Below, piece after piece: positions 31,620 through 59,094 of a stretch of DNA of 64,000 bases. The DNA comes from an uncultured Candidatus Saccharibacteria bacterium. Lineage in GTDB: Bacteria > Patescibacteriota > Minisyncoccia > Phycocordibacterales > JACNGX01. The DNA lies in assembly GCA_964621395.1 (NCBI GenBank), contig CAZULS010000002.1, forward strand, positions 170,252-234,251, in the 5' to 3' direction. The stretch's first letter is position 1; every line of letters starts with the position of its first letter. The position numbers were made by a program, and so were the translations under genes. The notes beneath the pieces were generated by a model. The model did not search any database. It saw only the letters and a program-made list of their open reading frames with translations, and was not told the DNA's origin.

Positions 31620-31727
31620 AATGGAGCTTGTAACTGATAGCTTTTAGCTTGTAGGTCGCGCGCTACTCGTCCCGCAGAGCTTTAGCGAAGTAGGAACAAC
31701 GCGCGCTCCCTTTTTCTGCCGTGCCCG

Positions 31728-31790
31728 AGCATGACTTGCCATGCTTTAGGGCCCTGCCCGAGCACAGCTTGCTGTGCTTTAGGGTCATTC
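31728..31790. repeat. two tandem family-2 REP-like palindromes (gcccgagcatgacttgccatgctttagggcc ; gcccgagcacagcttgctgtgctttagggtc)
   Basis: Read directly. The same unit occurs at 6218, 14688, 14982, 34588, 34620, 40706 and 50025. Confidence 0.7.
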
Positions 31791-31796
31791 CGCACT

Positions 31797-32996
31797 TTAT
31801 GACCTGCGAAGCCTTGGCGGAGTAGGTGATACGGAATCTTCGTGTGTTTCAGGAATACGTTCATATGTTATCGAGAGAAGAAGCGGTGCCAGTATGGTGG
31901 AGAGTGCACTTCCGGCGATAAATGTTGCGATAAGAGTGCTATCAAGGAGTCCGAGTGATGCACCGGCAAAGACAGCGGCAAACATGGTAGAAAGCTGAGG
32001 AATCTGAGAAAAGCCCAAGGCAAGACGCTCAGCCGAAGATTGCAGACCACTTACTATTCCACCGATGTATCCGCTTACGAATTTTAAGAGAAACGCACTG
32101 CCAAGGACACTACCGAGAATGATAAGCGAGCGAGTATCTGAGAAGAGTCCTCCGATATCGGCCTGTACACCGACAAGCACAAAAAAGATGGGAATGAACA
32201 CGCCGTAGGCAAGTGCATGGAGTTTGTCTTTGAGGATGTCGGTTTTTACCGATTCGGAAAGTACGAAGCCGACGAAGAATCCGGCAATGACCGCATGAAG
32301 TCCGAGGAGTTCAAAGATGACCACCGTGCCAATCATGAGCATGAGTATGAGGCGTATCTCACGCTCAAAAGCATGTTGCGTGGAAAGGTGACGAAAGAGA
32401 TTATGAACACGGGGGATGCCCCATTTGAGAAGGACGAGAATGCCCAACAAGAGCGGATAAAATATCCACAAAGAGAGTGTAGTGGAAGGATGGATACTTT
32501 GCAAAAAAATAGAGAGAAGAACGAGTCCGGCGATATCGGCGACCATTGCCGAGCCGAGAATAGTGTCGCCGAGCGGTGTTCCGAGAGCATTGCGCGCGTT
32601 GAGCGTTGGAAGAATAACGGCAATAGAGGATGCAATAAAGACAATACCGAGCAGAAGCGCAGTAGAAAAGGGGAAACCGAGGCCGACACCAAGCAACACT
32701 CCTCCGGCAAAGGGAACGATGGTGGTAAAAATGCTGACGATGGCAATTGGTTTTAAGCGCCCTTGAATACGTGACCATTTCGTCTCGAGGCCGGCCATAA
32801 ACATGAGAAAAATGAGTCCGATTTCACTCAAGAAAAGAAGTGTCGGATCTCCGGTGGGCACAATTGCCAAACCGTGCGGACCAAGTACAAAACCGGTTAC
32901 CAATAATGCAACCACCCACGGCACATGAAGCCGACTAAATATTCCGGAGAGAAACAAGCCGGCAATGAGAATGATGAAAAAGGAAAGGAACTCCAT
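31797..32996 (-). CDS. cation:proton antiporter (CPA-family Na+/H+ or K+/H+ exchanger)
   Basis: 399 aa, about 12 TM helices. The N-terminal FLSGIFSRLHVPWVVALLVTGFVLGPHGL is typical of the Na_H_Exchanger family. Confidence 0.8.
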   Translation of the reverse strand: MEFLSFFIILIAGLFLSGIFSRLHVPWVVALLVTGFVLGPHGLAIVPTGDPTLLFLSEIGLIFLMFMAGLETKWSRIQGRLKPIAIVSIFTTIVPFAGGVLLGVGLGFPFSTALLLGIVFIASSIAVILPTLNARNALGTPLGDTILGSAMVADIAGLVLLSIFLQSIHPSTTLSLWIFYPLLLGILVLLKWGIPRVHNLFRHLSTQHAFEREIRLILMLMIGTVVIFELLGLHAVIAGFFVGFVLSESVKTDILKDKLHALAYGVFIPIFFVLVGVQADIGGLFSDTRSLIILGSVLGSAFLLKFVSGYIGGIVSGLQSSAERLALGFSQIPQLSTMFAAVFAGASLGLLDSTLIATFIAGSALSTILAPLLLSITYERIPETHEDSVSPTPPRLRRS

Positions 32997-33155
32997 GAAT
33001 TACGAATGTACAAATCACTACAAATCTACAAATGGTACGAATAATACGAATGACGAATCGGATATTTGCTGTCATCCCGCACTTGATGCGGGATCTTCAT
33101 TATATGACCACTCTGCGAAATTTTTTCCATACCAAGGTTTAACCTTGGTATGGCA

Positions 33156-33599
33156 TTACTCCGCAATATTCTCTACACATGCTGTGAAATCAGGGGTCTC
33201 CGTCCATCCACATTGCCCGCTTTCCTGGCGTTCACACGTTGCTTTTCGGTAGCAACCATACAGCGGTGTCCATTCGCATGTGGTGACTATTTCATGTGCG
33301 ACATCCGTGGGGACGCATAACTGCGAACTGCACCCGGCGGGGATGCACTGCTGGGGTGTCAGCACGTCGGGAGCGTACATGACATGCTCCACAAATGTAC
33401 GTTCACCGTGGCGACATTGGCGCGGATACGATTCCATAACCGGATTTCCTGCAGCGGCACAACTTTGAAAATCGGTGACGATACTCTCTGCGGGAGCGGC
33501 CATTCCTCCCTCTCCTACACGAGTAATTGCCACACCAATACCACCGATGATAATAACACCGATGAGCGCAAAAAAGATTGTCTGTTGCGATATATGCAT
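33156..33599 (-). CDS. hypothetical secreted/membrane-anchored Cys-rich protein
   Basis: 147 aa. An N-terminal TM/signal anchor and 10 cysteines in the mature part. Confidence 0.45.
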   Translation of the reverse strand: MHISQQTIFFALIGVIIIGGIGVAITRVGEGGMAAPAESIVTDFQSCAAAGNPVMESYPRQCRHGERTFVEHVMYAPDVLTPQQCIPAGCSSQLCVPTDVAHEIVTTCEWTPLYGCYRKATCERQESGQCGWTETPDFTACVENIAE

Positions 33600-33733
33600 A
33601 GTGGAGCTTGTAGCTGATAGCTTTTAGCTTATAGATCGCGCACTGCGTGCGCTCCTTTTCAAAAGTGAGGTTGTCGCGACACCAAGGTTCAGCTTTGGTA
33701 TGAATACCAAAGCTGAACCTTGGTGTCGCCCAG

Positions 33734-34447
33734 TCATTCCTTCTCCCCAATCGTCTCACTCGCTTTCTGTATTTCTTCCTCCTCAGCCATCTCCTTTTTC
33801 TCTTTTTCAATCGCGCGCATGGCAACACCGCGCCGCACGTAGAAATTCATAAGTGAAAACGTGACCATAGCGGCAAAGACAATACCGATAACATTGAGCA
33901 AGAAAATAATGAATCCGCCGGTCATAGCGCCCCAACTTCCCTTCGCTAACCCGACACCCGTCATGGCAATCGGCGGAATGAGTGCGACGGCAATCGCAAC
34001 ACCCGGAAGCATTTCATTGAGTTCTTTTTTCACAATGGCAAATGATGCGGCAAGCCCGGCAACGATAGCCACAGCAATATGCAGGAGCGACGGATCCATA
34101 TAGCTTGATGACATATCAGTACTGTTTCCAAAAAGGAGTGTGGCAGCCGCTGCGGCAATAACAGCCACAACAATTGATTTCCCAATCGTGATAAGCGAAC
34201 GTTGCACAAGTGTGGTATCGGAAATAACAAATCCAAGCGAGAGCGAAAGCACGGGCGAGAGAAGCGGTGCCACGAGCATACTTCCGATAAGGACGGGTAT
34301 ATTATTCATGATAAGACCGAATGCCGCCATGAGGACCGACAACGAAATCATGAGAAAGAAATCCTTACTCGGACGGCTCTGAGCAATCATTTTCTCAATG
34401 GCAATCGCTTTGTCGTCTTCTGAAAGGTTGTTGAATACTGAAAACAT
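33734..34447 (-). CDS. DUF389-like integral membrane protein
   Basis: 237 aa. Multiple TM helices with the GSMLVAPLLSPV .. IAVALIPPIAMTGVGLA pattern, reminiscent of the DUF389/TIGR00341 family. Confidence 0.5.
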   Translation of the reverse strand: MFSVFNNLSEDDKAIAIEKMIAQSRPSKDFFLMISLSVLMAAFGLIMNNIPVLIGSMLVAPLLSPVLSLSLGFVISDTTLVQRSLITIGKSIVVAVIAAAAATLLFGNSTDMSSSYMDPSLLHIAVAIVAGLAASFAIVKKELNEMLPGVAIAVALIPPIAMTGVGLAKGSWGAMTGGFIIFLLNVIGIVFAAMVTFSLMNFYVRRGVAMRAIEKEKKEMAEEEEIQKASETIGEKE

Positions 34448-38134: not shown

Positions 38135-40609
38135 TTAGGCGGTCTCTTCGCCGTTATCTGATAATGTGTCATCTTCGACAGAAGTGTCCGGCTCGTTTCC
38201 GGTGTCGGAATCACTCTCATGTTCTGAAGAGTCGCCTGATTCTTCATGTGTTTCTTGAGAAGTATCATCTTCGGTGGGCGGTACATCTTCTGTTGTTTGG
38301 GCATCATGCTGATCTTCCAGAGGTGTGTCCTCTTCTCGCAGTGCTTCTTGCTCATCTTCCTCTACGGCAGAACCGGGCATCTCTTCTTCACTTTCTTCTT
38401 CGACCGATCCCGCTTCAGCATCGCTTGAATCTTCTTCCTCCGTATTCTCGGAAACTGTCTCCTCAGAGCCTTGTGTTTCGACATCCTCAGACTCGTCAGA
38501 AGCGGCAGTATCCGTGCCCTGTTCTTCACTCTCGGCCGATTCGCCCGACTCTGATTCCTCATCTTGAGAAGCTGTTTCGTCGTTCTCCTCGCCAACTTCA
38601 TCTTCCTCGACCAATCCTGCTTCAGCAGGACTGAGGTCTTCACCGTCTTCATCTCCTTCGCCCGATTCTGACGCATCACCTTCTTCATTGTCCTCATTAT
38701 TTTCAGAAGCCGTCGCGCTACCGTCATCAGCTGCTCCATCCTCAGCACCCGCGCCATCACTATCATCACCGGAATCCGAAGCACCGTCAGTACCATCGTC
38801 ACCGAGCATCATCGTATCACCTGATTCAACATCCGAACCCTCGGCCGATCCAGCTTCAGCTGGATGTAGGCTTTCCTCAGGCACAATCTCAATCGCCGGC
38901 ACCGCATAGGAAGCTGCATCCGGCACCTCTTCCCCTTCGTAGACAACCACAAGTCGTGTACCTGTGAGCTCATACCCGTCTGCCTCCGCTGTGTACACAA
39001 TCTCGTATACCCCCGCCACAGCGGTATCAACAGTTCCTTCCGTGTGCACGCTCATATCAGCACCCGAAGCATTCAAAACGCGCGCACCCATATCGCTATA
39101 CGAAGAACCAAGTGCCACAAGAGCCGGATTGTTGCCCACAATCTCCATTTCCGGCATCGGCTCATCCTCCGCCGGCACCGGCGTCATAAGCGGCTCGTCC
39201 ATCATCGCTTCAATCGGGAACGGATCCCATACACGACCACTAAAGGTAAAGGCATGTACCATTGGATTTTCCGGTCCGTATGCCACAAGTTTAATCCAGA
39301 TATTACCCACAAATCCGCTTGGCACCGTCCAGTCGTATTCTCCGGTATTACCAATACCCGTTGCAATCACGTGCTCGGTATCACCGTCGTCAATCACTTC
39401 ATCAGCATTGATATCGCGAATGTACGAAAGATCAATAGAGAGATCTCCGTCAGGACCGTTGTGGTTCTCTGCATTCCATTCAATGGTATAGGTGTATGTC
39501 CAGTACCATGTTTGTGAATTGTCGTTTTCATCGGGATTGAGCATATCCACGCTCGGCGGAAGAAGCTCACTCCAGTCCGCAGGTGTGTCGGTGTCGGTTC
39601 CCGAAGGATTACGCGCAAGCATGCCGCCCTCTTGCACAAGAGGTGCAGCCGGATCCCATACCGCCGTGTCGTCTCCCCAACCCACAGCATCAATCACCAC
39701 ACCATCGGGGCGCTTCAAAAGCAAATGGTCGCCATCGTTTGCCAAACCGCCACCGATTGCATTGTCGTCAATCTCAATCTTCACCACCTCATCCGGAATA
39801 TTCCAATAATCCCATGTCGTGCTCGTTGCTGAAATCACCGCATATCCGCCGGCGGGAATTGCCGGCGTGGACGTTGGCATAACATCACATGATGTATTAT
39901 CACACAGTTCCCACTCGGCAAATTCAAGCGGTACATCCGTCTGATTGAAAATCTCTATCCATTCATTCGCCGGCTCACTGCCGAGAGACGGCGCAACATC
40001 ATAATACACCTTATTGATACGCAATCCCCATGAGCTAATGGTATTTTCCACCTTTTCTGTATCGTAATATCCACCGAGCATGTATCCCGGCAGTTCCTTT
40101 TGCCAACCGTCGTACACAATATCAAACGAGCAAATCTTATTCTGATGATTTACCGGCGACGTGAGTGTGTAGTGCCAGGTGCCGAGGGTGTCTGCATCCG
40201 GTGCACTGGAAAACGCGGTAAGCGCACCATTATAGTATGTAGTCGAATCGTATTCGGCTTTAATATTCAAATCGTCACAGTAGTCGACATCGCCCGCCAT
40301 ATTATCAGCATGAGCGACGTAGTAAAAATCAGTACTGGTGCCTTCGTCGATAATTTCAATGTCTCGAAAACCGGTATTGCCGTAGAAAAGGTCTGCCTCC
40401 GATTCCGGCGGAGTCCAACTCGTCGGCTCCAAACGAAAGTCCAGCATATGCGCCGCAAAAAGATTGCCGTCTGAGCGTTCGGTATCGTTGTAGTAGCCAA
40501 ACGTCTCACCCACCGCCGAGAGCCCGGCGGCATTCATGCCCACAACAAGAAACACGGCGACGATGCGTCGAATTGCTTCTTGAATGTATTGTTCGTTAAG
40601 ACGAGTCAT
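38135..40609 (-). CDS. SipW-cognate (TasA/camelysin-like N-terminus) surface protein with lamin-tail domain and long acidic C-terminal tail
   Basis: 824 aa. The N-terminus GETFGYYNDTERSDGNLFAA parallels the AFFSDTETSTGNTFTAG motif of SipW-cognate proteins. An LTD-like segment is present (NEWIEIFNQTDVPLEFAEWELCD..AIPAGGYAVIS). The C-terminal 260 aa are D/E/S-rich with LHPAEAG / LSPAEAG / SDAEAG repeats. Confidence 0.7.
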   Translation of the reverse strand: MTRLNEQYIQEAIRRIVAVFLVVGMNAAGLSAVGETFGYYNDTERSDGNLFAAHMLDFRLEPTSWTPPESEADLFYGNTGFRDIEIIDEGTSTDFYYVAHADNMAGDVDYCDDLNIKAEYDSTTYYNGALTAFSSAPDADTLGTWHYTLTSPVNHQNKICSFDIVYDGWQKELPGYMLGGYYDTEKVENTISSWGLRINKVYYDVAPSLGSEPANEWIEIFNQTDVPLEFAEWELCDNTSCDVMPTSTPAIPAGGYAVISATSTTWDYWNIPDEVVKIEIDDNAIGGGLANDGDHLLLKRPDGVVIDAVGWGDDTAVWDPAAPLVQEGGMLARNPSGTDTDTPADWSELLPPSVDMLNPDENDNSQTWYWTYTYTIEWNAENHNGPDGDLSIDLSYIRDINADEVIDDGDTEHVIATGIGNTGEYDWTVPSGFVGNIWIKLVAYGPENPMVHAFTFSGRVWDPFPIEAMMDEPLMTPVPAEDEPMPEMEIVGNNPALVALGSSYSDMGARVLNASGADMSVHTEGTVDTAVAGVYEIVYTAEADGYELTGTRLVVVYEGEEVPDAASYAVPAIEIVPEESLHPAEAGSAEGSDVESGDTMMLGDDGTDGASDSGDDSDGAGAEDGAADDGSATASENNEDNEEGDASESGEGDEDGEDLSPAEAGLVEEDEVGEENDETASQDEESESGESAESEEQGTDTAASDESEDVETQGSEETVSENTEEEDSSDAEAGSVEEESEEEMPGSAVEEDEQEALREEDTPLEDQHDAQTTEDVPPTEDDTSQETHEESGDSSEHESDSDTGNEPDTSVEDDTLSDNGEETA

Positions 40610-40785
40610 GTACCTAGGAAATTAGGAGATTAATAAGTTAGGAGGTTAGTATTCGCGCGCTAACGCGCGCTCCTCATATTCACCAAAGCAAACGGCTAAT
40701 TCAAGCTTTGCCCGAGCACAGCTTGCTGTGCTTTAGGGTCATTTTTTGTTTGGTTTTTGATATTTTTCTTTTTATCGTTCATCGT

Positions 40786-41367
40786 TTATAGTTTATCGTT
40801 TACAGAGTCAGCGTGTCCTTCACTATCTATTTCTCCACCACCATCCTCTTTCTTACCACGCCCCTTCCGCACCTCCTTAATTATCTTCCACACCTCATCC
40901 ACAATAATCGCCCCCGCGGGAATCACAATAAGGAGAAAGAATCCAATCGGTTTTTTCGCAAAATCAATAATATATCCAAGATAGGGAATGGAAAACAGCA
41001 CCTTTCCAATCACTTCCCCTTCACCAACCTCGCGCACATCCGGATCTTCATTGGCATCTCCCTTCGTTTGAAAGAGCGTCTGTCCCGCTTCGACACGCAT
41101 GTCAACAATACGGTGCGTCGTTGGAACCTTCTCACGTGTGTCTTCGCCGAATGTGATAATGTCGTCGATGGCATACATGCTCTGCGGCAAAATGACAGCC
41201 AAACTCCCCGTGTGAATTGCCGGCTCCATCGAACCCGACGACACAATCTTCACCTGGACATTCCCCTTCATCGGAATGAGCGAGAAGACAAGAATGGCGG
41301 CGATGCAGAGAACGGCAGCCGTAAACGCATAATATGCGATTTTCCAGATGGTATTGATGAGGTTCAT
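40786..41367 (-). CDS. sipW: signal peptidase I, SipW-type (archaeal/eukaryotic-like S26B)
   Basis: 193 aa. N-terminal TM, the catalytic Ser box VSSGSMEPAIHTGSLAVI, His in TTHRIVD, and a C-terminal TM. It is adjacent to three SipW-cognate proteins. Confidence 0.8.
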   Translation of the reverse strand: MNLINTIWKIAYYAFTAAVLCIAAILVFSLIPMKGNVQVKIVSSGSMEPAIHTGSLAVILPQSMYAIDDIITFGEDTREKVPTTHRIVDMRVEAGQTLFQTKGDANEDPDVREVGEGEVIGKVLFSIPYLGYIIDFAKKPIGFFLLIVIPAGAIIVDEVWKIIKEVRKGRGKKEDGGGEIDSEGHADSVNDKL

Positions 41368-41571
41368 ACTCTATATAGCTGTCATTCTGGCCTCCGAGCC
41401 GGAATCTTCGCTATTGCGGACGATTACACCAGTTTTTAGTTGTTAGTTTGTAGTTTTTAGTCCGCGCACTTCGTGCGCTCCTCCACACCCTCTTTTGTCA
41501 TTCCCGACTTGATCGGGAATCTTCGCGATACCAAAGTTAAACATTTGTATCGCCTTCCAACCGACGCCCTA

Positions 41572-41779: not shown

Positions 41780-43099
41780 TTATTGAGGAGTGGTAGGAAT
41801 AACCACATCCGCACAATTAAATCCATCATTATTACGCTGCTGTTCCGCATACGCAACAAATTCAGAAATAACCTTGTCCGTCTGTGCTATGTCACCCATA
41901 CCACTTCCACTACAAGTAATGGGATCTGAATCACCGGTGTTTTGAGGACCGGTCTGCGTACCTGCACACCAATCAAAGCCAATAAGACTTACCGGCGTGT
42001 TCGGAAGAAGCGGCATAGCAATCATGTTTTGTTGAATTTGATCGAATGAAGTTCCTGCCGGAACATACACCGTCTCAGAAACATCATACATATTGTTTGC
42101 ATTCGCATCACCCCAAACGAAGAATTCAAGTTCTCCGGAGAGTTCACCCACAGCGTCAGTCGTGTCGTTGGCTTCAATTTCCGGATCAATACGAGTATTT
42201 TCATCGTCGACGATATTGTGCGGGAAGAGACATGAATATGCCTCGTTGCCATACACATGAAGTGAGATAATGCTCTTGCCCCAGTCACCCGGCTTCACAT
42301 CGTTGAAGTTCCAAAATGTTTCGCCGCTCAAGTCTGTTTCACTCCAAAGAGTACACGTACCCCCATAAGTGTATGTGTCATCACAATCAAGTGTTACAAG
42401 AGATATATCGTCAAGATATCCTCCGAGAGTGTCTTGCTGTGAACCGGCATCTGTGAAGCTCACGGTGGTTTGTGCATCAAGAGCGACAAAGTCGTAGGTG
42501 TACTCTTTCCACACTGTACCAGAACCACTATACGAAGGCTGTCCAATGACATCGTTCACCATGACACCGCTTGTTGATGTCACAAGAACACCAAGTTCAA
42601 TTGCATTGTCGGTGTCGGGACCATTGTTCGGTCGCGGTGAGTGGTAGAAAGTGAGACGGTATTGCTGACCGGGCACAGTATCAACCACCTGTTCAATTCC
42701 CGAGGCGCTATCACCGGGAGTATGGCTGTCGAGTTCAGCAAGCTGATTTCCACTATGTGGTGCACCAGCAGCATTATTCTGGATTTCAAGGCCTGCAGAA
42801 CCGCCGGTTACGTCCCAACTCGTGAGTGAGCCGTCGGGATACACAGCCCATTGTCCATTGCCAAGCGCCGGCGTTTCGAATCCGCCGTTTACAATAAGTT
42901 CCGTGTCTCCCTCAACACAGTTATTACACACTTCGCCATTGTACTCAGCGTATGTGTGGTCTACCTTCAAATCAACAGAACCCGCCGTGAAGACATTGCC
43001 TGTGGACGTTTCCGTGTCGTTGTAGAACGCCACCGTAGCGCCTGCGACAACCACACCGACAAGAGCGATAGTCGCAATTCCTGTAAATAATCTGTTCAT
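41780..43099 (-). CDS. SipW-cognate TasA/camelysin-like secreted protein
   Basis: 439 aa. Signal peptide, then ATVAFYNDTETSTGNVFTAGSVDLKVD, the hallmark N-terminal motif of the TasA/CalY (peptidase M73-like) SipW substrates. Confidence 0.75.
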   Translation of the reverse strand: MNRLFTGIATIALVGVVVAGATVAFYNDTETSTGNVFTAGSVDLKVDHTYAEYNGEVCNNCVEGDTELIVNGGFETPALGNGQWAVYPDGSLTSWDVTGGSAGLEIQNNAAGAPHSGNQLAELDSHTPGDSASGIEQVVDTVPGQQYRLTFYHSPRPNNGPDTDNAIELGVLVTSTSGVMVNDVIGQPSYSGSGTVWKEYTYDFVALDAQTTVSFTDAGSQQDTLGGYLDDISLVTLDCDDTYTYGGTCTLWSETDLSGETFWNFNDVKPGDWGKSIISLHVYGNEAYSCLFPHNIVDDENTRIDPEIEANDTTDAVGELSGELEFFVWGDANANNMYDVSETVYVPAGTSFDQIQQNMIAMPLLPNTPVSLIGFDWCAGTQTGPQNTGDSDPITCSGSGMGDIAQTDKVISEFVAYAEQQRNNDGFNCADVVIPTTPQ

Positions 43100-43172
43100 G
43101 TTTTAGGAAGTTAGCTTGCAGCTGATAGCTTTTAGGGTCGTGTGCTCACGCACACTCTTTCTCTCTGTCATC

Positions 43173-46774: not shown

Positions 46775-47031
46775 ATACCGTATATTATAGTCTTTTTCAC
46801 GATTATGTCAATAATAATCGTGAAAAAACACGTTTTTTACCACTTTTTAACGATTATTTTTCTGATATTTTCTGTACCAAGGTTGAACCTTGGTACACCA
46901 CATAATATCAAGCTGTCAAGCAAAAGGACGGCTCCTTCGGAGCCGCCCTACGCGCCCTTGACTTTTCACTGCAGAAAGTCCATCCTTGTGAAAGATTGAC
47001 TTTGATAAAAAACACTTCAAAGGAGGCGATA

Positions 47032-47496
47032 ATGAATATCAATGCTCTTGAATTTTCTCCCGGTGTTCTCAGAGGCAGATTGGGCAACATTATCAGTGTT
47101 GTTGCAGCATGTGAAAAAGCCAAAGAATACGCGGCGAAGCATGGAAGACGCGCGTATAACGACAGAGACCCGTTGTTGTACGAATCATTCATGCCGTTTA
47201 CCCCGCAAGTTGTCGGTAGCTATTATTTTTTCCCGAAAGATGAAGATATTGTGAAATTCGCGCATATCCTCGTACGTGAACTCGAAAGTGATCTCGGATT
47301 GATTGATTTCCGTAAAAGAAAAGAGGTCATGCAGGCGAATCACCTCGTTGCATGGCGCGCCGATGCGCCGGCGAACAATCACCTGACGTTCTTGGTACAA
47401 ATGTATGACGGAGTCGGTACTAATGGTAATCTCGGCATTGCCATCGGCATCGCGCATAAAAGTGTCGTTTACGATCTCGCGCATCATACGAATTGA
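47032..47496 (+). CDS. hypothetical protein
   Basis: RBS AAAGGAGG 6 nt upstream of ATG 47032 and a TTGACT -35-like box upstream. 154 aa with no recognisable family. A hairpin plus T-run terminator is at 47510-47540. Confidence 0.5.
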   Translation: MNINALEFSPGVLRGRLGNIISVVAACEKAKEYAAKHGRRAYNDRDPLLYESFMPFTPQVVGSYYFFPKDEDIVKFAHILVRELESDLGLIDFRKRKEVMQANHLVAWRADAPANNHLTFLVQMYDGVGTNGNLGIAIGIAHKSVVYDLAHHTN

Positions 47497-47621
47497 TATG
47501 CACCTACTTCCCCGCTCCTTCGCCGGAGCGGTTTTTTCTTGACAATTTTAGACGGGACATATACCCTTTACAAGGTTTTCAAAAAGCACTATTTTCTTTC
47601 ACAAAAACAAAGCAAGCTATG

Positions 47622-48110
47622 AGTAAAGAAACAAACCTCCTTCTTCTGCACCTGTTTGCGCCGAAGGAAAAACAGGGTGAAAGTGTCAATCAATATGATG
47701 GGCTTCCATCCGCTTCTGCGGTATTTCTCCCCGCGTCCGAGAATGTGGGCGAAATACTTGAAGACGCATCGGTGTGGGAAATTCAGACATGTCTCGCGGG
47801 AGACCGCGGTCTCGGCATGTTTTGCAACGACGTGTCCGCGTACGCCCATCACCGCATGCACGTTGCCGGCAAAGTTGCACCGCACAAAAAACGTATCCTC
47901 CTCGGCGCGCCGGACAACAAGCGCGGATGGATGGTACTCTACACGGCGGAAGAGCCGGTGCCCCAGACCGTTGCGTACCTCAACCAGCTGGTCATGGTAT
48001 GGGGATGCAACAGCGGAAAGATGTATCTCAAAACACTCGTTCCCCGGCAGGAATTTGATGGCGGACTGTTCACGCCCGCCATACCGTTCCTCAAAGTTCC
48101 TTCTTTGTGA
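47622..48110 (+). CDS. hypothetical protein
   Basis: 162 aa. It has its own TTGACA box (47544) and a terminator hairpin (48118-48150). No family recognised. Confidence 0.45.
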   Translation, partial: SKETNLLLLHLFAPKEKQGESVNQYDGLPSASAVFLPASENVGEILEDASVWEIQTCLAGDRGLGMFCNDVSAYAHHRMHVAGKVAPHKKRILLGAPDNKRGWMVLYTAEEPVPQTVAYLNQLVMVWGCNSGKMYLKTLVPRQEFDGGLFTPAIPFLKVPSL

Positions 48111-48210
48111 CAAGTTCCCCTCCCGATCATCCGACTATCGGGAGGTTTTTTCTTGACAACCGCTCCCACTTCGTGCATGATTGGCGCAGAACATACAACA
48201 ACAATCAAAT

Positions 48211-48732
48211 ATGGAGTCTCTTATGGAACACGAACGCATCGTACGCTCCGGTGCCGGTCATGTCATGCTTTTGCATAAGCCATCCGACATGGAGATATGT
48301 TTTAACTTTATCTTCACTCTTTCCAAAGAAATGAGTGAAGAAAACGCCCGAGGTCTGTTCCGGTATTTTTCACCACACGCGATGATCGAAGAAGGGCAGG
48401 CGGTATTTTTCGGATTACAGGAAGAATATGTGCCGGATGTAATGGTGCCCCGCGTATTTTCCCCCGAACCTATCCCTTCTCGCCTCATTATTCAGACAAT
48501 GGACGCTTTGGGAGGAGAAACGGAACACCTTTTCACTTTCAAGGAAGACGGCGAAAAAGATATTGCTGCAACATTTGTAGAGCACGCAAATTTTCTCAAT
48601 ATGGGCGAAATCCCACAGCACAGTATTTCTTCCCTTTTCGGGAATACAAATATACTGGGTGTGTGGAAACCGACACCAAGGTTTATCTCCCTTGTAGAGA
48701 TAAAAATTATTGGTGTTGCAGAAGAAAAATAA
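48211..48732 (+). CDS. hypothetical protein
   Basis: 173 aa. A TTGACA box at 48154. No family recognised. Confidence 0.45.
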   Translation: MESLMEHERIVRSGAGHVMLLHKPSDMEICFNFIFTLSKEMSEENARGLFRYFSPHAMIEEGQAVFFGLQEEYVPDVMVPRVFSPEPIPSRLIIQTMDALGGETEHLFTFKEDGEKDIAATFVEHANFLNMGEIPQHSISSLFGNTNILGVWKPTPRFISLVEIKIIGVAEEK

Positions 48733-48833
48733 CGAGCGGCCCCGAACACGGGCCGTTTTTACTTGCGTAATTTTTGCATGTATGGTATTGTGTAAGCCGT
48801 TTTGTTTTTTGCAACCGCCAAAAGAATACAACT

Positions 48834-49364
48834 ATGAGTACAAGTCAGAGAGAGCCGGAGAAAATCTTTAACATCAAATTTTCCTCAATATCCATGAGGG
48901 ATCTTCGGAGGGAAGCTGAAAAATATGCAGAAGAAGTAGCAGAAAAAGTAGACGAGAAAGTCCCTATACCAGATAAATTGAAAGATATTATTGTCGTGGG
49001 GACAACCGCTCTCCCTCATTTTGACAGAGAAAAAGAAGACGAGAGAAGTATGCAGAAGATTCTCAGAAGAAACCTCAGGGCGTATTTTTCTGCTCTCAAT
49101 TTGTCAATGAATGGCGCTGGGATACTTTTCTTTGAAGAGAAGCATAATCACGATACTCTTGAACAATCAAAAGGGTTCTTTACTGCGTACGCTTCCGCAG
49201 GTGACCATGTGGTCATCTGGGCAGATCTTTTCAAACGATTTGATGCCAGGGTTTATCATGTTCGCCTTGGCCTTGCCTGGAAACCGGTTATGGAAGCCTG
49301 GAAGCTATCAGCGGAAGGTTTACTTGCAGAAGAAAGAGAAAGAGTCGTAAAAGATTTGGTGTAG
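48834..49364 (+). CDS. hypothetical protein
   Basis: 176 aa. The N-terminal half is charged and helical. No family recognised. Confidence 0.45.
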   Translation: MSTSQREPEKIFNIKFSSISMRDLRREAEKYAEEVAEKVDEKVPIPDKLKDIIVVGTTALPHFDREKEDERSMQKILRRNLRAYFSALNLSMNGAGILFFEEKHNHDTLEQSKGFFTAYASAGDHVVIWADLFKRFDARVYHVRLGLAWKPVMEAWKLSAEGLLAEERERVVKDLV

Positions 49365-49453
49365 GGAGATTGGTTACCTCTCTGCATCTTGCAGCGCGGT
49401 CCGTCAGTACCTTGTGGTACGGGGCCGCTTTTTTATGCATAAAGCACGAAGTA

Positions 49454-49481
49454 TTGACAAAAGTATGCTTTTGTGTATAAT
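49454..49481 (+). promoter_or_regulatory. consensus sigma-70-type promoter TTGACA-16nt-TATAAT
   Basis: ttgacaaaagtatgcttttgtgtataat read directly, about 55 nt upstream of ATG 49536. Confidence 0.5.
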
Positions 49482-49535
49482 ACTATTCAGAGTTTTTAGA
49501 CACAATTTTCGCAAAACCTTATCCAAGGGGGACTT

Positions 49536-49751
49536 ATGCGGATGGGAAAAATCACAGTCGTTGCCGCTCTTCTTGTGGCAGCATTCTTTGTCTCTTTCAG
49601 GGCTGGTGTCGTCATACATCAGCTCCCGATTGAGTGGGGTGTACAGCCGGGAGACTGGCTCATGATCACTCCAATCGCTTTTATGGGGGTGGTTATGCTC
49701 TTTGTAGCATACCATCTCATCGCAAAAGCGATAAAAATAATCGGCAATTAG
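49536..49751 (+). CDS. small hypothetical membrane protein (71 aa, 2 TM)
   Basis: MRMGKITVVAALLVAAFFVSF ... ITPIAFMGVVMLFVAYHLIA. Driven by the consensus promoter above. Confidence 0.5.
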   Translation: MRMGKITVVAALLVAAFFVSFRAGVVIHQLPIEWGVQPGDWLMITPIAFMGVVMLFVAYHLIAKAIKIIGN

Positions 49752-50052
49752 CCGAGAACACCGGAGCGTACAGCAGTATTGTACGACTCCGGTTTGTTGT
49801 TTCCGCGGCCGAGCATCCTTATACCAAGGTTCAACCTTGGTATAAGGATGCTATTATGATTATAGCCTTATATTACAATGGTTTTATACTTACCTATACC
49901 AAGGTTGAACCTTGGTATAGATACTTGTGTCAAGAGAAAGCGCGGCGTATGCCGCGCTTTCTATTTCTATCTCCTATAGCTTTTATCGTTAATAGTTCAG
50001 CGTTTTACTGTGGCCGAGCATGCTCGCCATGCTTTAGGCCCGTTCACCAAGA

Positions 50053-50229
50053 TTATTTCTTCCAATCTTCGATGATGAGCCTAGTTCCCTCCTGGCGGAC
50101 GGTGACCTTCTGTTTTTCTCGCCATTTGAGATTACGGACCATTTCTATCGGAAGTGTGACAGCAATACTTCCATTTCCTATTTTTAATAATTTGCGCGTA
50201 TTTCGTTCTCCGAGAGTTTTACGTGGCAT
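50053..50229 (-). CDS. AbrB/MazE/SpoVT-family DNA-binding protein (58 aa)
   Basis: MPRKTLGERNTRKLLKIGNGSIAVTLPIEMVRNLKWREKQKVTVRQEGTRLIIE is the swapped-hairpin beta-barrel signature (KIGNGSIAVTLP). An AT-rich multi-palindrome lies immediately upstream (50231-50285). Confidence 0.6.
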   Translation of the reverse strand: MPRKTLGERNTRKLLKIGNGSIAVTLPIEMVRNLKWREKQKVTVRQEGTRLIIEDWKK

Positions 50230-50422
50230 ATACGTGAGAAAATTAATTAATAAATTATATAATTTATTATATAATAAATTAATTAATTTTTTTATCCACA
50301 CATAATACTTTTCTTCTTTTTTATCATTTCAACCTCTCCGAGTCGGAATAGTGCGGGATGACAAGATGGGTAGTACACAAAAACACCCCCTTTAGGGGTG
50401 TTTTTGTGACTAATGGTCAGTG

Positions 50423-50460
50423 TGGACCCGACTGGGTTCGAACCAGCGACCTCCTGATTG
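50423..50460 (-). pseudogene. tRNA-Ala 3'-half fragment (anticodon-loop position 36 to discriminator)
   Basis: 38 nt identical to the 3' half of the intact tRNA-Ala at 50526-50599. Identity ends exactly at the anticodon loop (..cctgattg|). Confidence 0.7.
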
Positions 50461-50525
50461 TACCGAAAAGCAAGAAGTGGAACGGCTATGCTTTTCATAT
50501 CCCGTAAAAATGATAATGGTCAGTG

Positions 50526-50599
50526 TGGACCCGACTGGGTTCGAACCAGCGACCTCCTGATTGCAAAACAGGTGCTCTAGCCAACTGAGCTACGGGCCC
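50526..50599 (-). tRNA. tRNA-Ala (anticodon UGC)
   Basis: A manual cloverleaf folds with acceptor GGGCCCG/CGGGUCC, the G3:U70 Ala identity pair, a D-arm GCUC-AGUUGGCUA-GAGC, anticodon loop UUUGCAA, T-arm GCUGG-UUCGAAC-CCAGU and discriminator A. CCA is not encoded. Confidence 0.85.
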
Positions 50600-50688
50600 A
50601 CACTACTCACTATAAGGATATGGTACGGACAAAAGGACTTACTCGGGATCTCGAAAAATATATTCGCTTTGCTCATTATTTTTCGGGA

Positions 50689-50724
50689 CAAAACAGGTGC
50701 TCTAGCCAACTGAGCTACAGGCCC
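50689..50724 (-). pseudogene. tRNA-Ala 5'-half fragment (position 1 to anticodon position 35), 1 mismatch
   Basis: 36 nt matching the 5' half of the intact tRNA (gggcctgtagctcagttggctagagcacctgttttg). It ends at the same anticodon-loop junction as the 3'-half fragment. Confidence 0.7.
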
Positions 50725-51294
50725 AAGTGAGGAATATTATATAGAACACACCAAAAAAAGCAAGGGATTTTGGGTGTTAATTGAATAAAAAACCACCTCA
50801 ATCATAGAGGTGGTATGGAAATCGGGAACAAATTTTCGCACGAACGGCGACATTCCCTCACGGATACGTATTTTTTCTTCTCCATTCTCGTTCTTTCTCT
50901 GCGTATTGCTTCCTGTTCCTCGGCCATCGCCTTTGCTTTTTTATACTGACGACAAAGAGTAAATGGGAACAAATGTAATCCATCATCCTCGAAAAGCCCA
51001 ATGCCTTTTTCAGCATACTTCATAAAGGAATTATGGGCATATTTCTCTGCTGCTTTCAAAAAATGCAGGTACATATTACCCGTTGATAGAAAAGAAAAAA
51101 CCGGTTCGGGGGAAAGAATGACGCGCTTCAGTAAGAACAACGATATCCTCTTCGCACCCTTTTCCGCGCATCGACAAGAAAGAGAAAAAAGGATATGGCG
51201 TTTGTATGCTCTGTATATTTCTCTCAAACCGAAAGAAATAAGAGAGCATGTGGTCAAAAAAGATTGTCTGTTCATAGCACACTCCTTTTTGTTT

Positions 51295-51729
51295 TTAAGC
51301 AAAACCGAATATTTGTCTTTCGAAAGTCTGAACAAACTTCTCATTGACAACCGCTTTACGCAGAAGCGCAATAAGAATTTCGTTCAAGGTTTCCGAAGCA
51401 CACGAAAAGTCCGACAAGGACCCTTCTGCCACCCCTTCCACTCGCTCACGCAATTCTAGAAAAGCTTCAACGCTTTTCCCGACACACGGACCTTTTTTCA
51501 ACTCTGCAAGAAGCGAGCTGAAGAAGAGATCTCCGTGATTGATGAGAATTAACCCATTCTTTCTTTGCAGTATGTCAATCCATGTCATCCCTTCAAGCAG
51601 TTCTACAAACCGCTTCTCGTCGGCGGGGGTCATTGCGGTTTTTGAAGGCGTGGCGACACTTTTTCTTCCTTGGTCGTCTCTCAGCAGTGTTTTTTTGCTC
51701 ATTTCCCAAAATTCTTTTGAAGTTACCAA
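51295..51729 (-). CDS. hypothetical protein
   Basis: 144 aa. The translation is protein-like, and there is a divergent promoter region at 51730-51810. No family recognised. Confidence 0.4.
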   Translation of the reverse strand: MVTSKEFWEMSKKTLLRDDQGRKSVATPSKTAMTPADEKRFVELLEGMTWIDILQRKNGLILINHGDLFFSSLLAELKKGPCVGKSVEAFLELRERVEGVAEGSLSDFSCASETLNEILIALLRKAVVNEKFVQTFERQIFGFA

Positions 51730-51816
51730 AAATTCCAGATTTCACCATACCATACACTCATTTTGTTTGTCAAATGCTTGTGTTGAAAAGATGTGTATGG
51801 GATGTATAATGATTGT

Positions 51817-52290
51817 ATGAGTAACCGCTATGAAATGCCAAACGAGGTAGAAGTAATGGTGCCTGAAAAGGCCATTCATAAAGTGGCACAGATTTATACT
51901 GAGCATCTCATGCAGCCAGGTAACGCTGAAGCACTTATTTCCGAGGCGCTTGAGCGTATTGGACGTAAAGAGAAGAACACTATTAATGCCAATGAGGTTC
52001 GCATTGCGGCACTGGAACGTGTTGCTGAAGATAACGGCGGTGTATTACCTGAAGGTTCACTGCGTGATTTGTATAAAGAAAAAGTTATTGAAGAAATTAC
52101 GGAGATAATGTGTGCTGAGCCGTACGATCCCACTGATCCTGAGAGAGTTGTAGAGTATTACAACAAGCCACAACAGCTTCTTATTGCACATGAGCCATTT
52201 CGGGTAATGTTTTCCGGTGAGATAAATAAGATTACGAAGGATATTTTAGGAGATGAACGTCTTGCGTTCAACATTGCTGAGACGGGATAA
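51817..52290 (+). CDS. hypothetical protein (alternative start ATG 51856 with GAGGT RBS)
   Basis: A TTGAAA-16-TATAAT promoter at 51783-51810 sits inside the ORF-track start (51793), so the true start must be downstream. No family recognised. Confidence 0.45.
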   Translation: MSNRYEMPNEVEVMVPEKAIHKVAQIYTEHLMQPGNAEALISEALERIGRKEKNTINANEVRIAALERVAEDNGGVLPEGSLRDLYKEKVIEEITEIMCAEPYDPTDPERVVEYYNKPQQLLIAHEPFRVMFSGEINKITKDILGDERLAFNIAETG

Positions 52291-52314
52291 CTAACGGTTC
52301 TAGATTCCGAAGCT

Positions 52315-52384
52315 GGATCCTGAATCACCAAGTACCATTTTCACTAAAGCGAAAAAAGTGCTCGGCACGAGTTCAGGATGACGA
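52315..52384. repeat. family-5 nested palindrome, copy 3
   Basis: ggatcctgaatcaccaagtaccattttcactaaagcgaaaaaagtgctcggcacgagttcaggatgacg. Confidence 0.65.
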
Positions 52385-52434
52385 TGTTTTGTTTTTAGAC
52401 AAAAAACTGACCTTCGCGGTCAGTTTTAGAGTGT

Positions 52435-52869: not shown

Positions 52870-52897
52870 ATGGAAATAGTGAATGAATAAAATTATA

Positions 52898-53083
52898 AGA
52901 GCCTGTTCGTAATCTCATGTCGTGCGTGATATGCCCATATACCGAGCGAAAATCGTGAAAAACGTTGATGGAGTACTGCCGTACTTCGAGACGTTTTGAG
53001 CGATTTGCAGCCGGTATATGGGCATATCAGCCGACAAGGACAATTTTATTCATTCAATTCCGTTGAGATTGTGAACAGGCTCT
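52898..53083. mobile_element. MITE-like foldback element, family A copy 3
   Basis: 186 bp. TIRs agagcctgttcgtaatctca / tgagattgtgaacaggctct. The internal 17-bp arms gatatgcccatataccg / cggtatatgggcatatc pair perfectly. It ends 3 nt before the atpC stop codon. Confidence 0.7.
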
Positions 53084-53086
53084 AAG

Positions 53087-53693: not shown

Positions 53694-55103
<1,410 letters not shown>

Positions 55104-56205: not shown

Positions 56206-56268
56206 ACGGTATTTTCGGAAAGGACGGTCCTGTCTGCAGGACGGTGAAAAGTGTAGTGTAATGTTTTT

Positions 56269-57795: not shown

Positions 57796-57937
57796 GATTA
57801 GTATGTCAGTATGTTAGTAAATTAGGAGGGTAGTATGTCAGTATGAATCGCTGCTACGCAGCTCCTTTTATTGGTAAATATTTGTACCATTTGTAGATTT
57901 GTAATTATTCGTACATTCGGAGTCCTTGTAATTTGTT

Positions 57938-58342
57938 CTAATGTGTTTTCAGTGCAGTACTGAGTTTCTTCAATGTGTGTTTGAGGCTTCCGTCGAGGAG
58001 GCGATTTTCATATCGGAGGGTAACGCCGCCAAGAAGCGACATGTCTGTCTTCTCAGAGAGCTCAACGAAAGTAGCATTCGTCTTTTCTTTTACATACTCC
58101 GTAATAATATGCTTCTCGCTTTCCGAGAGCTCTTTCGCTGAAGTAACATGAGCATGAACCCTTCCCTCTTCTCTATCATATAAGCGCCGAAGAGCCTCAA
58201 GAATTTCGTCTGCATACGGCAACATCATGTCTTCGGAGAGCACAGTGCAAAAACGGCTGAGAACCTCGGCACGTTCCTCACCGCCTTCTTCGAGGGCGGC
58301 TTTGAGTGCGCGGGCATAATATTGTGGGCTCGGTTTTTTCAT
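57938..58342 (-). CDS. atpH: F1 ATP synthase delta (OSCP) subunit
   Basis: 134 aa. Sits between atpF and atpA. The C-terminal LLGGVTLRYENRLLDGSLKHTLKKL is OSCP-like. Confidence 0.7.
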   Translation of the reverse strand: MKKPSPQYYARALKAALEEGGEERAEVLSRFCTVLSEDMMLPYADEILEALRRLYDREEGRVHAHVTSAKELSESEKHIITEYVKEKTNATFVELSEKTDMSLLGGVTLRYENRLLDGSLKHTLKKLSTALKTH

Positions 58343-58397
58343 AATTCAGTAAGTCAGTACATGAGGAGGGTAGTATGAATCGCCGCTTCGCGGCTCT

Positions 58398-58889
58398 TTA
58401 TGATTCATTACGAATCTCTTCTACAAGACTCTTTTGGGTTTCCGAATCGAGTTTTCCCAATACTTTTTCCAAAGAAAGCACCACTAAATCAGCGGTCTCT
58501 TCGCGAAGCTCGTTTTTCAGCTGTTTTCTTTCCTCTTCCATGCGAGCATGTTCTTTTTCTGCCTCACGCTGCATGTCTTCTTTCATTTCCGTGAGTGCCG
58601 CGACACGGTTCTTTTCCGCGTCTTCCCGTGTTTTTTCGAGGAGTGCATGTGCCTCTTTTTTCGCTTCAGCAAGCTTTTCTTCGTACCCACTGTGTGCTTT
58701 TTTCAGCTGTTCGTCGGCCGCTTGGGCGTCTGCAATTCCTTTCTCTACTTTTTTGGTACGTTCCTCAAGAACATGTGTGAGCGGCTTCACTACAAAGAAA
58801 TACAAAACAGCCAAGACAATGGCAAAGTTGATTACTTGGGCAATGAGAAGCCCGACATCAATGTGAAATGATTCGACGATTGGATTCAT
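58398..58889 (-). CDS. atpF: Fo ATP synthase b subunit
   Basis: 163 aa. One N-terminal TM helix followed by a long charged coiled coil. Confidence 0.8.
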   Translation of the reverse strand: MNPIVESFHIDVGLLIAQVINFAIVLAVLYFFVVKPLTHVLEERTKKVEKGIADAQAADEQLKKAHSGYEEKLAEAKKEAHALLEKTREDAEKNRVAALTEMKEDMQREAEKEHARMEEERKQLKNELREETADLVVLSLEKVLGKLDSETQKSLVEEIRNES

Positions 58890-59094
58890 ACGAGAGCTTA
58901 TAGCTGATAGCTTTTAGCTTATAGGCGCGCGCTTCGCGCGCAGTTTTTATCGTTATGAGTTTCGAGCAAGTGGTTTACACCCTTATCCGGGGAAAATTCG
59001 AGAAGTTGTTAGTTTTTAGTGAGTAGTTGGTAGTGCCGCGCGAGCGAAGCTCGCGCGGCTTTTATCGTTTATAGTTTTTCGTTTAATCGTTCAC

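Follow-up and report, generated by a model that had tools for sequence, protein, structure and literature searches.

We examined a 64,000-nt stretch of DNA from an uncultured Candidatus Saccharibacteria bacterium (assembly GCA_964621395.1, contig CAZULS010000002.1, positions 170,252 to 234,251; hereafter the window), in which four minus-strand genes carry a tract of AGCT units with a 7-nt period 5' of their ATG. According to Pfam and a precomputed match (Heavy_Cys_CGP, for the second), these genes code for a PAS histidine kinase, a small Cys-rich protein, a camelysin-type protein with a Peptidase_M73 N-terminus and a DUF642 domain, and AtpF, in which the ATP-synt_B model starts at residue 15. 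All four products have a hydrophobic N-terminus. The AtpA protein of the window is 72–73 % identical to those of Falkowbacteria and Parcubacteria metagenome-assembled genomes, and for atpF a 'Parcubacteria group bacterium' protein shows 84 % identity, which places the window in a Patescibacteria (Candidate Phyla Radiation) genome. Sequencing run SRR8146440 contains an identical contig. The tracts and the stem-loops upstream of them are arranged as follows:

31620..31656, minus strand: AGCT tract and 5-nt spacer of the histidine-kinase gene (ATG 31617-31619; units at 31625, 31632 (AGTT variant), 31639 and 31646)
31657..31705, minus strand: long GC-clamped stem-loop directly 5' of the histidine-kinase tract (minimum-free-energy structure)
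33600..33636, minus strand: AGCT tract and 5-nt spacer of the Cys-rich gene (ATG 33597-33599; units at 33605, 33612, 33619 and 33626)
33637..33652, minus strand: GC hairpin GCGCAC/GUGCGC of the Cys-rich leader, with a U-rich tail on the plus (antisense) strand only
43100..43138, minus strand: AGCT tract of three units with the 13-nt spacer aacttcctaaaac, Peptidase_M73/DUF642 gene (ATG 43097-43099; units at 43113, 43120 and 43127)
43140..43155, minus strand: GC hairpin GUGUGC/GCACAC 5' of the DUF642 tract
58890..58924, minus strand: AGCT tract and 5-nt spacer of atpF (ATG 58887-58889; units at 58895, 58902, 58909 and 58916); the ortholog in contig L322 has no such module
58925..58941, minus strand: GC hairpin GCGCGCG-AAG-CGCGCGC 5' of the atpF tract

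Alignment of the sense strands gives a shared block, in which a GC stem-loop is followed after 0–4 nt by the units CTAyAAG, CTAAAAG, CTATCAG and CTAyAAG, a terminal CT, 5 nt and the ATG. The tract can thus be written as (CTAnnAG)3-4CT with a gap to the ATG of 5 nt, or 13 nt at one site. The leader of the Cys-rich gene reads gcgcac-gca-gtgcgc, gat, CTATAAGCTAAAAGCTATCAGCTACAAGCT, ccact and ATG, and that of atpF reads gcgcgcg-aag-cgcgcgc, CTATAAGCTAAAAGCTATCAGCTATAAGCT, ctcgt and ATG. The bases between the AGCT cores are nearly the same in all copies (heptads CTAAAAG, CTATCAG and CTAYAAG), and AAG or CAG triplets recur every 7 nt. An earlier note on this DNA had described four AGCT units directly abutting the ATG, which is accurate for the Cys-rich gene and atpF; in the histidine-kinase copy AGTT replaces one unit and the upstream stem-loop is longer (49 nt), and the camelysin/DUF642 copy has three units lying 13 nt from the ATG, hence not strictly abutting. 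The presence of the tract at all four genes is confirmed: AGCTNNNAGCTNNNAGCT, with at most one mismatch, has 9 matches in the window, every one at the four loci, against 0.09 expected, and none of 100 shuffles reached 9. Tandem Repeats Finder reports period 7 and 4.3 copies at 31625, 33605 and 58895. The tract is real and highly non-random.

Each tract contains a stop codon in the frame of its gene (at -27, -27, -6 and -27), with no in-frame start between this stop and the ATG; the tract is therefore not coding in that frame. No Shine-Dalgarno (SD)-like 4-mer occurs in the four leaders, as that note had stated, nor does the purine-rich GGAGG core. Rfam covariance models run over the whole window left the AGCT leaders unmatched, with tRNA-Ala alone above the gathering score. 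The GC-rich hairpin that had been noticed upstream is predicted at all four leaders, with stems that differ in sequence and carry compensating changes.

These GC hairpins were also checked as intrinsic terminators; on the sense strand they continue into the tract without a U tract, and their U-rich tails lie antisense (33638, 43140, 58925 and 31657-31720). Minus-strand GC hairpins are present in the atp intergenic regions as well (57850-57862, 58382-58394, 58925-58941, 59035-59059 and 60972-61015), and all hairpins of the atp spacers and AGCT modules have the T-rich tail on the plus strand, while the sense strand shows an A-rich run and the hairpin but no U tract. Their appearance is that of terminators against antisense transcription, or of processing or 5'-stabiliser sites. 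Inverted arms of the REP/MITE type (repetitive extragenic palindrome/miniature inverted-repeat transposable element) were looked for in the four window spacers, and no T-rich AGCT arm was found there. The four AGCU units could fold on themselves into a nested hairpin (-6 to -7 kcal/mol) without involving the AUG, at z = -0.7 to -0.8 against shuffles; since it is no better than shuffled sequence, the idea of a structured leader, which the earlier note had entertained, was dropped.

We searched metagenome contigs with the pattern CTAAAAGCTATCAGYTNNAAGCT. At least 120 metagenome contigs matched, and the matches listed contain 110 non-redundant sites with tracts of 3–16 units; the site counts given below refer to these listed sites. 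In the A-rich orientation, which is that of the window genes, an ATG-initiated open reading frame (ORF) of at least 80 aa begins 5–8 nt after the last AGCT at 20 of the 110 sites and 0–1 nt after it at 2, and just 7 further sites have one at 9–60 nt. In the opposite orientation no such ORF begins within 12 nt, and with the cut-off lowered to 60 aa the ratio within 12 nt is 23 A-rich to 1 opposite. At 39 sites of the T-rich orientation a long ORF ends no more than 40 nt upstream, in 30 cases at -2 to +10 nt; the A-rich orientation has 9 such sites, evenly spread. Among the ORFs that end at T-rich tracts, some may be spurious and antisense, of the kind found opposite atpF. That one (163 aa, 58375-58866, plus strand) is exactly antisense to the gene and begins after GAGGAGGG, which complements the atpH leader; it matches nothing in Pfam and was taken as spurious. 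A GC hairpin lies within 25 nt upstream of the tract at only 6 of 109 sites, which rules out an obligatory hairpin-plus-tract module and makes the hairpin a feature of the window genome and a few others (L149, L248 and L307).

Promoters can be recognised upstream of 4 of the 22 ATG-adjoining metagenome tracts. L084 has TTGACA-N17-TATAAT 6 nt ahead of the first AGCT, and L091, L123 and L201 have GTGCTATAnT 24–37 nt ahead of the tract; there the tract is transcribed as a 5' untranslated region. The same order of promoter, optional hairpin, tract and ATG is found in the window before corA, the Na+/H+ exchanger gene and 18259-19503, which carry tracts of other families. The predicted cost of opening positions -20 to +13 is 5.9 kcal/mol for 16 tract-bearing leaders, whereas coding windows cost 12.2 kcal/mol (p = 1e-8). 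The exact AGCT tract has no matches in viral contigs, where a generic AGCT-heptad pattern frequently finds other unit types. Viral (AGCTAGG/AGCTGAG)n arrays adjoin ATGs, their last unit carries GGAG at SD spacing, and their hosts use SD; to judge from this arrangement, the repeat unit itself is what carries the ribosome-binding signal in these viral tracts. One group of viral contigs (L204, L210, L213, L221, L228, L250, L272, L302, L311 and others) recurrently has (AGCTnCA)n of 4–10 units directly upstream of TTGACA, with a -10-like hexamer 17 nt on.

The AGCT tract is not alone in the window. When the upstream 70 nt of every plausible gene were listed for tandem units, at least five further families were found to adjoin start codons: ATTCGTA, TTATCGT, ACTCG, CATACTGA and CTCCTAA. 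ATTCGTA/ATTTGTA units lie 5' of rmuC, ychF, the Na+/H+ exchanger gene and atpD; TTATCGT units 5' of a hydrolase gene and 40813-41439; ACTCGnn units 5' of corA; CATACTGA/TTACTGA units 5' of atpA, atpH and 43387-44802; and CTCCTAA units 5' of 38135-40609, 18259-19503 and atpD. Per 100 kb, Tandem Repeats Finder counts 34 period-7 arrays in the window, 1.6 in block-shuffled sequence and 7.7 in loci from outside the Candidate Phyla Radiation (CPR); for period 8 the counts are 14 in the window and 1.9 in block-shuffled sequence. Among the window arrays of period 7, 8 or 14, the end is no more than 15 nt from a start codon in 11 cases, the beginning is no more than 15 nt from a stop in 8, and 4 arrays lie in coding DNA. 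Judged by its repeats, the tract is (CTAnnAG)n, one of at least six repeat families in an SD-less, Parcubacteria-type CPR genome. Members of the other families include:

57796..57849, minus strand: CATACTGA/CTCCTAA octads adjoining the atpA ATG, preceded by the hairpin 57850-57862
58343..58397, minus strand: hairpin and CATACT/TACTGA tract adjoining the atpH ATG, one 8-nt unit different from L322
55092..55212, minus strand: atpG-atpD spacer, in which a TACAAAT tract right behind the atpG stop pairs with an ATTTGTA tract
27032..27065, minus strand: ATTCGTA tract occupying the entire spacer 5' of ychF
10598..10739, minus strand: spacer with TACGAAT (after the P-ATPase stop) and ATTCGTA (adjoining the rmuC ATG)
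32997..33050, minus strand: ATTCGTA/ATTTGTA tract adjoining the Na+/H+ exchanger ATG, with a TGnTATAAT-like promoter and a hairpin upstream
3126..3161, plus strand: ACTCG heptads adjoining the corA ATG, with the extended -10 TGGTATACT upstream
28389..28425, minus strand: TTATCGT heptads adjoining the ATG of the Bact_hydrolase gene
40610..40650, minus strand: CTCCTAA-type octads adjoining the ATG of 38135-40609, with the hairpin gcgcgcgttagcgcgcg before them

The orientation of these families follows a rule, by which ATTCGTA, ATTTGTA and TTATCGT stand before starts and their reverse complements TACGAAT, TACAAAT and ACGATAA after stops; it recurs elsewhere: L021 has CGTAATT at a 5' end, and L022 has TTACGAAT at 3' ends. 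Two simple causes were considered and rejected. Stops in all three frames are a property of the AGCT T-rich arm and not of TACGAAT/TACAAAT, and avoidance of upstream start codons does not agree with ATTTGTA, which includes TTG. Two window spacers are flanked by inverted arms, the atpG-atpD spacer being a 28-bp hairpin (z = -8.4). Other intergenic repeats of the window (31718-31784, 33680-33724 and several other spacers) are hairpins of the type (c)cctaaagcacagcaagctgtgctcgggca, which occur twice in tandem 5' of the histidine-kinase gene, 'gggaatgac' hairpins, and perfect palindromes of 25–45 nt built on ccaaggtt...aaccttgg.

SD-like 4-mers at 5–13 nt before the ATG are almost absent from the window and related CPR loci, whereas non-CPR atpA loci show a peak at 6–10 nt; the window has an SD fraction of 6 %, and non-CPR loci have a median of 30 %. 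According to Tsurumaki et al. (2022, PMC9297842), around half of Parcubacteria no longer carry the CCUCCU anti-SD. Neither the window nor the loci of close relatives contain an rRNA gene, and the only 16S found, on metagenome contig L194, belongs to another organism, in which the AGCT pattern occurs only inside a gene. The L194 tail GGAAUUAUUUUAG contains no CCUCC (about 1276-1330 of the reverse strand, GGAAUUAUUUUAGUCAGCGC in place of GAUCACCUCCUUA), and the adjoining genes have the arrangement TATAAT-N7-ATG, the hexamer being TATAAT or TATAGT exactly 7 nt from the ATG. L194 is an example of an organism without anti-SD using leaderless-type promoters. Across the CPR loci TAnnnT hexamers peak 6–7 nt before ATGs, and in the window TATAAT, TATACT or TACAAT stands 6–9 nt before several ATGs; by this hexamer evidence, leaderless-type promoters are common in the lineage. 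The earlier note had argued against a promoter on the ground that the AGCT motif lies too near the start codon, and this argument is unsafe because such -10 boxes are common here.

We weighed whether the tract could be a promoter for a leaderless or near-leaderless mRNA, with a -10 box 6–8 nt before the ATG formed by the final unit (TAnAAG or nAAGCT; A at -11, T at -7). The hexamer peak, and L194 with its CCUCC-less tail and TATAAT-N7-ATG genes, speak for this, as do a tract length of about 30–35 bp, which is the span of a core promoter, and the lack of a canonical promoter elsewhere in the four window intergenic regions. TTGACA-N18-TATAAG before 2601-2969 shows that TATAAG is able to pair with a perfect -35, and TAAGCT is the last hexamer of 12 of the 22 ATG-adjoining metagenome tracts against 26 of the 88 others (p = 0.04). 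The geometry suits atpF (TAAGCT+5) and the DUF642 gene (TAACTT+8), but TAnnnT is missing from the corresponding place in the histidine-kinase and Cys-rich copies, and none of the four has a recognisable -35: the best TTGACA-like hexamer 16–18 bp upstream agrees at 3/6 positions (CCTACA/TCTATA), and the promoter scan lists none. Moreover, the tract is transcribed where canonical promoters lie upstream of it (4/22), other tracts sit upstream of a -35, the reverse orientation beside stops would give antisense promoters, and the ATTCGTA and CATACTGA families place no TAnnnT 6–8 nt from the ATG. On balance we regard a promoter as unlikely.

In the window, CTCC/CTCCT, which is the canonical anti-SD sequence itself, is enriched 5–7 nt before ATGs in about 25 % of genes. 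The roughly 9–10 genes bearing CTCC at about -12 to -5 include atpD, atpC, 18259-19503, 38135-40609, the histidine-kinase gene and the Cys-rich gene. This enrichment was not seen in other CPR loci. The CTCC is often part of TAATCTCCT, perhaps a -10 box with its discriminator.

An alternative SD, in which the last AAGCU would pair with a diverged 16S tail, or an action of the tract through its own RNA structure, appears highly improbable. The spacing of 5–8 nt does equal SD spacing, Parcubacteria 16S tails have diverged (as in L194), and four AGCU units permit a nested hairpin. However, six repeat families stand at the ATGs of one genome, which a single rRNA tail is unable to match, the L194 tail holds no AGCU complement and its organism uses no tract leaders, the hairpin energy does not stand out from shuffles, and the other families are not self-complementary.

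Turnover was assessed in atpF-bearing contigs of three relatives, L322 (96 % atpF identity), L324 (84 %) and L327 (68 %). The flanks are about 97 % identical between the window and L322, and L322 has 22 nt with ACTCG heptads before the atpF ATG where the window has 69 nt with the hairpin and AGCT tract. L324 carries ACTCG heptads before atpF and an AGCT tract, ccAGCTATAAGCTAAAAGCTcgtatatATG, before atpC, and L327 carries degenerate CTCnnnn heptads before atpF. The atpH leaders of the window and L322 differ by one 8-nt unit, and L115 and L168 by exactly one AGCTAAA unit in otherwise near-identical DNA. These comparisons show that the modules are rapidly gained, lost, resized and swapped, and a conserved atpF leader is ruled out by all three relatives; a heptad tract of some family is nonetheless present at the atpF ATG in 4/4 genomes.

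The same comparisons bear on whether a sequence-specific RNA-binding regulator, for example a HutP-like ring reading NAG at a 7-nt period, would use the tract to co-regulate envelope and membrane genes. The AAG/CAG triplets every 7 nt, the near-identical spacer bases of the four copies and the hydrophobic N-termini of all four window products agree with such a site, and an OB-fold protein has a footprint of about 7 nt. The latter idea has also been put forward for TAACTGA repeats (PMC4679880). The likeness to HutP and TRAP targets, with NAG triplets at a regular period, is one of sequence only. Against such a regulator, the metagenome genes after tracts are unrelated (groEL, dnaE, atpG, rpmF, recO, ybaB, lemA, tatD and permeases), and hydrophobic N-termini are found in 8 of the 22 ATG-adjoining cases compared with a background of 23 %, for which reason an envelope-gene regulon was rejected. 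The module is also not kept at orthologous genes, the window proteins include no candidate RNA-binding protein, ring-shaped type included, and each of the five other families would require a separate protein. We consider this explanation very doubtful.

The tract is thus not a signal of four particular genes, as the earlier note implied, since it is one family of a genome-wide heptad/octad class, precedes unrelated housekeeping genes elsewhere and is absent from the 96 % atpF relative; it is most likely a generic, replaceable ribosome-loading leader. The part of the earlier interpretation that survives is that the motif is non-coding, gene-oriented and in the place of the SD, and is best read as belonging to a transcribed 5' leader that takes part in translation initiation or is at least compatible with it. 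Our favoured reading, to which we give a probability of about 0.4, treats the tract as a leader that is transcribed, folds weakly, does not depend on an SD and arose by replication slippage; its function, including an effect on translation and the binding factor involved, we infer from position. For this reading speak features that the sequences show directly, namely the enrichment, orientation and spacing of the tracts, the missing SD, the varied downstream genes, the rapid turnover with replacement by other families, the promoters upstream of tracts, the low opening energy and the viral tracts whose unit carries the SD; the TAACTGA precedent fits as well. According to this reading, the tract would be transcribed as the last 30–35 nt of the 5' leader, one orientation being retained, and would serve as a landing pad for the ribosome, weakly folded, G-poor (one G per heptad), free of start codons (no AUG, GUG or UUG) and ending 5–8 nt before the first AUG. 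Initiation would then be independent of 16S pairing, with recognition through single-strand RNA binding, for which S1- or Csp-type OB folds would be the obvious candidates. The GC hairpin would be a separate module at the 5' edge in the window genome, a boundary or stability element whose terminator-like U tail is antisense only. Born and resized by replication slippage and swapped among families, the tracts would be replaceable and not gene-specific regulators.

Several observations weigh against the favoured reading. The opening cost of 5.9 kcal/mol is not significantly below the 9.8 kcal/mol of the other 25 window genes (p = 0.10), and AT-richness alone could explain the low energy. The opposite orientation right behind stops is about as frequent (31 of the 110 listed sites), and 25 of these 31 have no downstream partner arm and are therefore not leaders. 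Tracts lie upstream of a -35 box in L130, L190 and many viral contigs, and inside coding sequence in L093 and L103, where a glycosyltransferase-like ORF contains in-frame AGCT heptads (...LKLKAISYKLKA... and ...LKLKAISYKLKARVQFVG), which means that the repeats can enter coding sequence. A complementary T-rich arm at 8 of the 22 ATG-adjoining tracts would bury the leader in a hairpin of about -20 to -45 kcal/mol. Orthologs do without the module: L327 has spacers of 4–30 nt before four of the five other downstream atp genes and 56 nt before atpG, and in L324 atpH lies only 5 nt behind atpF. Within Patescibacteria, array density and SD loss are uncorrelated (rho 0.04), and on this ground tract density as an SD substitute was rejected for the phylum.

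Much of this would be expected if the tracts were functionless, slippage-prone repeats of the long simple sequence repeat (LSSR) or short tandemly repeated repetitive (STRR) type, spreading in CPR intergenic DNA, and if their bias arose because insertions are tolerated beside starts and stops. The one-unit copy changes between near-identical strains (L115/L168, and the atpH leaders of the window and L322) suit this explanation, as do the absence of the atpF module in the 96 % relative and its place before atpC in the 84 % relative, the numerous unrelated units in the window and related loci, and the tracts behind stops, upstream of promoters and in coding DNA. Heptanucleotide arrays are the commonest long simple sequence repeat class in prokaryotes, according to Mrazek (2007) as cited in PMC4679880. 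The spacing of 5–8 nt (20 sites versus 7 over 9–60 nt) and the 23:1 orientation among listed sites are hard to obtain by tolerance alone, however, atpF retains some heptad tract in four genomes despite the change of family, and the ATTCGTA (5') and TACGAAT (3') rule recurs in the window, L021 and L022. We hold inert repeats to be a possible but somewhat unlikely explanation.

The paired arms permit a further, improbable interpretation as a punctuation system. At 17 of 109 listed sites a complementary T-rich arm lies within 90 nt; of the 31 stop-adjoining T-rich tracts, only 6 have a partner arm. Where both arms are present, the entire spacer is one hairpin of about -20 to -45 kcal/mol. In L095, L127, L134, L147, L184 and L189 (-19 to -43 kcal/mol) the stop codon is at its base, often the TAG of TAGCTT, and the next ATG mostly lies 0–8 nt beyond the stem (17–24 nt in L127 and L147). 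This geometry suggests termination-reinitiation across the stem. In a punctuation system, the T-rich arm would be at or in the stop codon, the A-rich arm would end 0–8 nt before the next ATG, and the spacer would form one hairpin; stop and start would come to lie side by side, and the terminating ribosome might melt the stem base and re-initiate across it. An analogue of ribosome shunting would then replace SD-guided internal initiation in anti-SD-less CPR, and solo A-rich arms such as the four in the window could be the landing-pad half. We think it improbable that the tracts work in this manner.

The closest precedent for the AGCT tract is the TAACTGA heptamer, which forms direct repeats in marine Beggiatoaceae, some Cyanobacteria and Bacteroidetes (MacGregor 2015, PMC4679880). 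Those repeats are mostly forward, a few nucleotides from start codons, without a ribosome-binding site and before unrelated genes, and S1, Csp and CsrA were put forward as binders, with their function untested there (PMC4679880). Both systems consist of tandem 7-nt units (2–6 copies in TAACTGA) that are intergenic, forward near starts and without SD in the spacer, with unrelated downstream genes, essential ones included, and occasional copies at ORF ends or inside ORFs; the AGCT tracts share all anatomical features of the TAACTGA type except the unit sequence. The window family CATACTGA/TTACTGA resembles TAACTGA. In contrast, the AGCT unit is CTAnnAG with a palindromic AGCT core, and the phylum is CPR. 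The AGCT host is essentially SD-free, whereas in the Beggiatoaceae genome BOGUAY the anti-SD is canonical and about 25 % of the genes have an SD. The AGCT genome combines at least six families, and its tract is coupled to a GC hairpin. The AGCT reverse complement is common behind stops and inverted pairs fold whole spacers, whereas BOGUAY has one inverted repeat in 170 repeat sets.

Other known elements are similar in part. The heptanucleotide STRR repeats of cyanobacteria, reportedly described by Mazel in 1990, and long simple sequence repeats are likewise mainly non-coding tandem arrays that change copy number by slippage, but these classes are not defined by a fixed orientation or distance to starts, and to our knowledge a link to SD-less translation is undescribed for them. 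The SD occupies the same place, 5–8 nt before the AUG, and viral relatives of the tract carry GGAG in the last unit, whereas the AGCT tract has no GGAGG and many unit sequences, and 16S complementarity is unlikely to be general. Unstructured A-rich, G-poor enhancers or standby sites are found in the TMV (tobacco mosaic virus) omega leader, in CA-repeat tails and in Bacteroidetes A-rich leaders; the AGCT tract is likewise repetitive, G-poor and weakly folding 5' of the AUG with low opening energy, but its AGCU core can pair with itself, and long hairpins lock up some of the copies. Like REP and BIME (bacterial interspersed mosaic element) sequences, AGCT tracts are intergenic, occur in both orientations, form stable intercistronic stem-loops as inverted copies and are rapidly gained and lost, but their arms are tandem heptads, not a unique palindrome, the four window copies are solo, and no RAYT-like transposase was seen. 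Leaderless promoters have in common with the tract a -10-like hexamer 6–8 nt before the ATG, which is common in the lineage and mimicked by some tract ends, and differ in that 2/4 copies lack TAnnnT, 0/4 have a -35 and promoters are found upstream of tracts. In the literature on these repeat sequences, CPR tandem repeats and Patescibacteria leaderless mRNA, we found no description of such tracts.

The tracts bear on how translation starts in CPR/Patescibacteria, and we know of no alternative initiation signal in anti-SD-less CPR. In the place of the SD, the window has -10 boxes at leaderless distance and orientation-fixed heptad tracts ending 5–8 nt before the ATG. With at least 100 metagenomic instances, stereotyped spacing and naturally occurring variants with and without the tract at the essential gene atpF, the tracts are a testable candidate for an SD-independent ribosome-loading element, and they extend the TAACTGA-repeat phenomenon to a new phylum. 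If they are inert, they give a measure of how much slippage-driven DNA is tolerated between the essential cistrons of a 'streamlined' genome.

Further features of the window were recorded in passing. An imperfect palindrome of 170–190 nt is present in three minus-strand copies (13461-13690, 29197-29381 and 52870-53086), directly upstream of a P-type ATPase gene, a response-regulator gene and a carbonic-anhydrase-like gene. The consensus folds into a rod with 65 pairs and 4 compensatory changes and matches nothing in Rfam; a MITE-like element and a structured leader common to the three genes are both conceivable. The leucyl-tRNA synthetase (1137 aa, 20825-24238, minus strand) has Ser_hydrolase (251-410) and NUDIX (588-687) domains inserted between the synthetase domains. 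A 5.6-kb region, 46800-52430, has only plus-strand ORFs with TTG/GTG starts and no Pfam match, together with tRNA-Ala(UGC) at 50525-50599 (minus strand) and an AT-rich 12/24-nt repeat at 50240-50289. Perfect TTGACA-N16-TATAAT promoters are located at 49454 (plus strand) and 46811 (minus strand).

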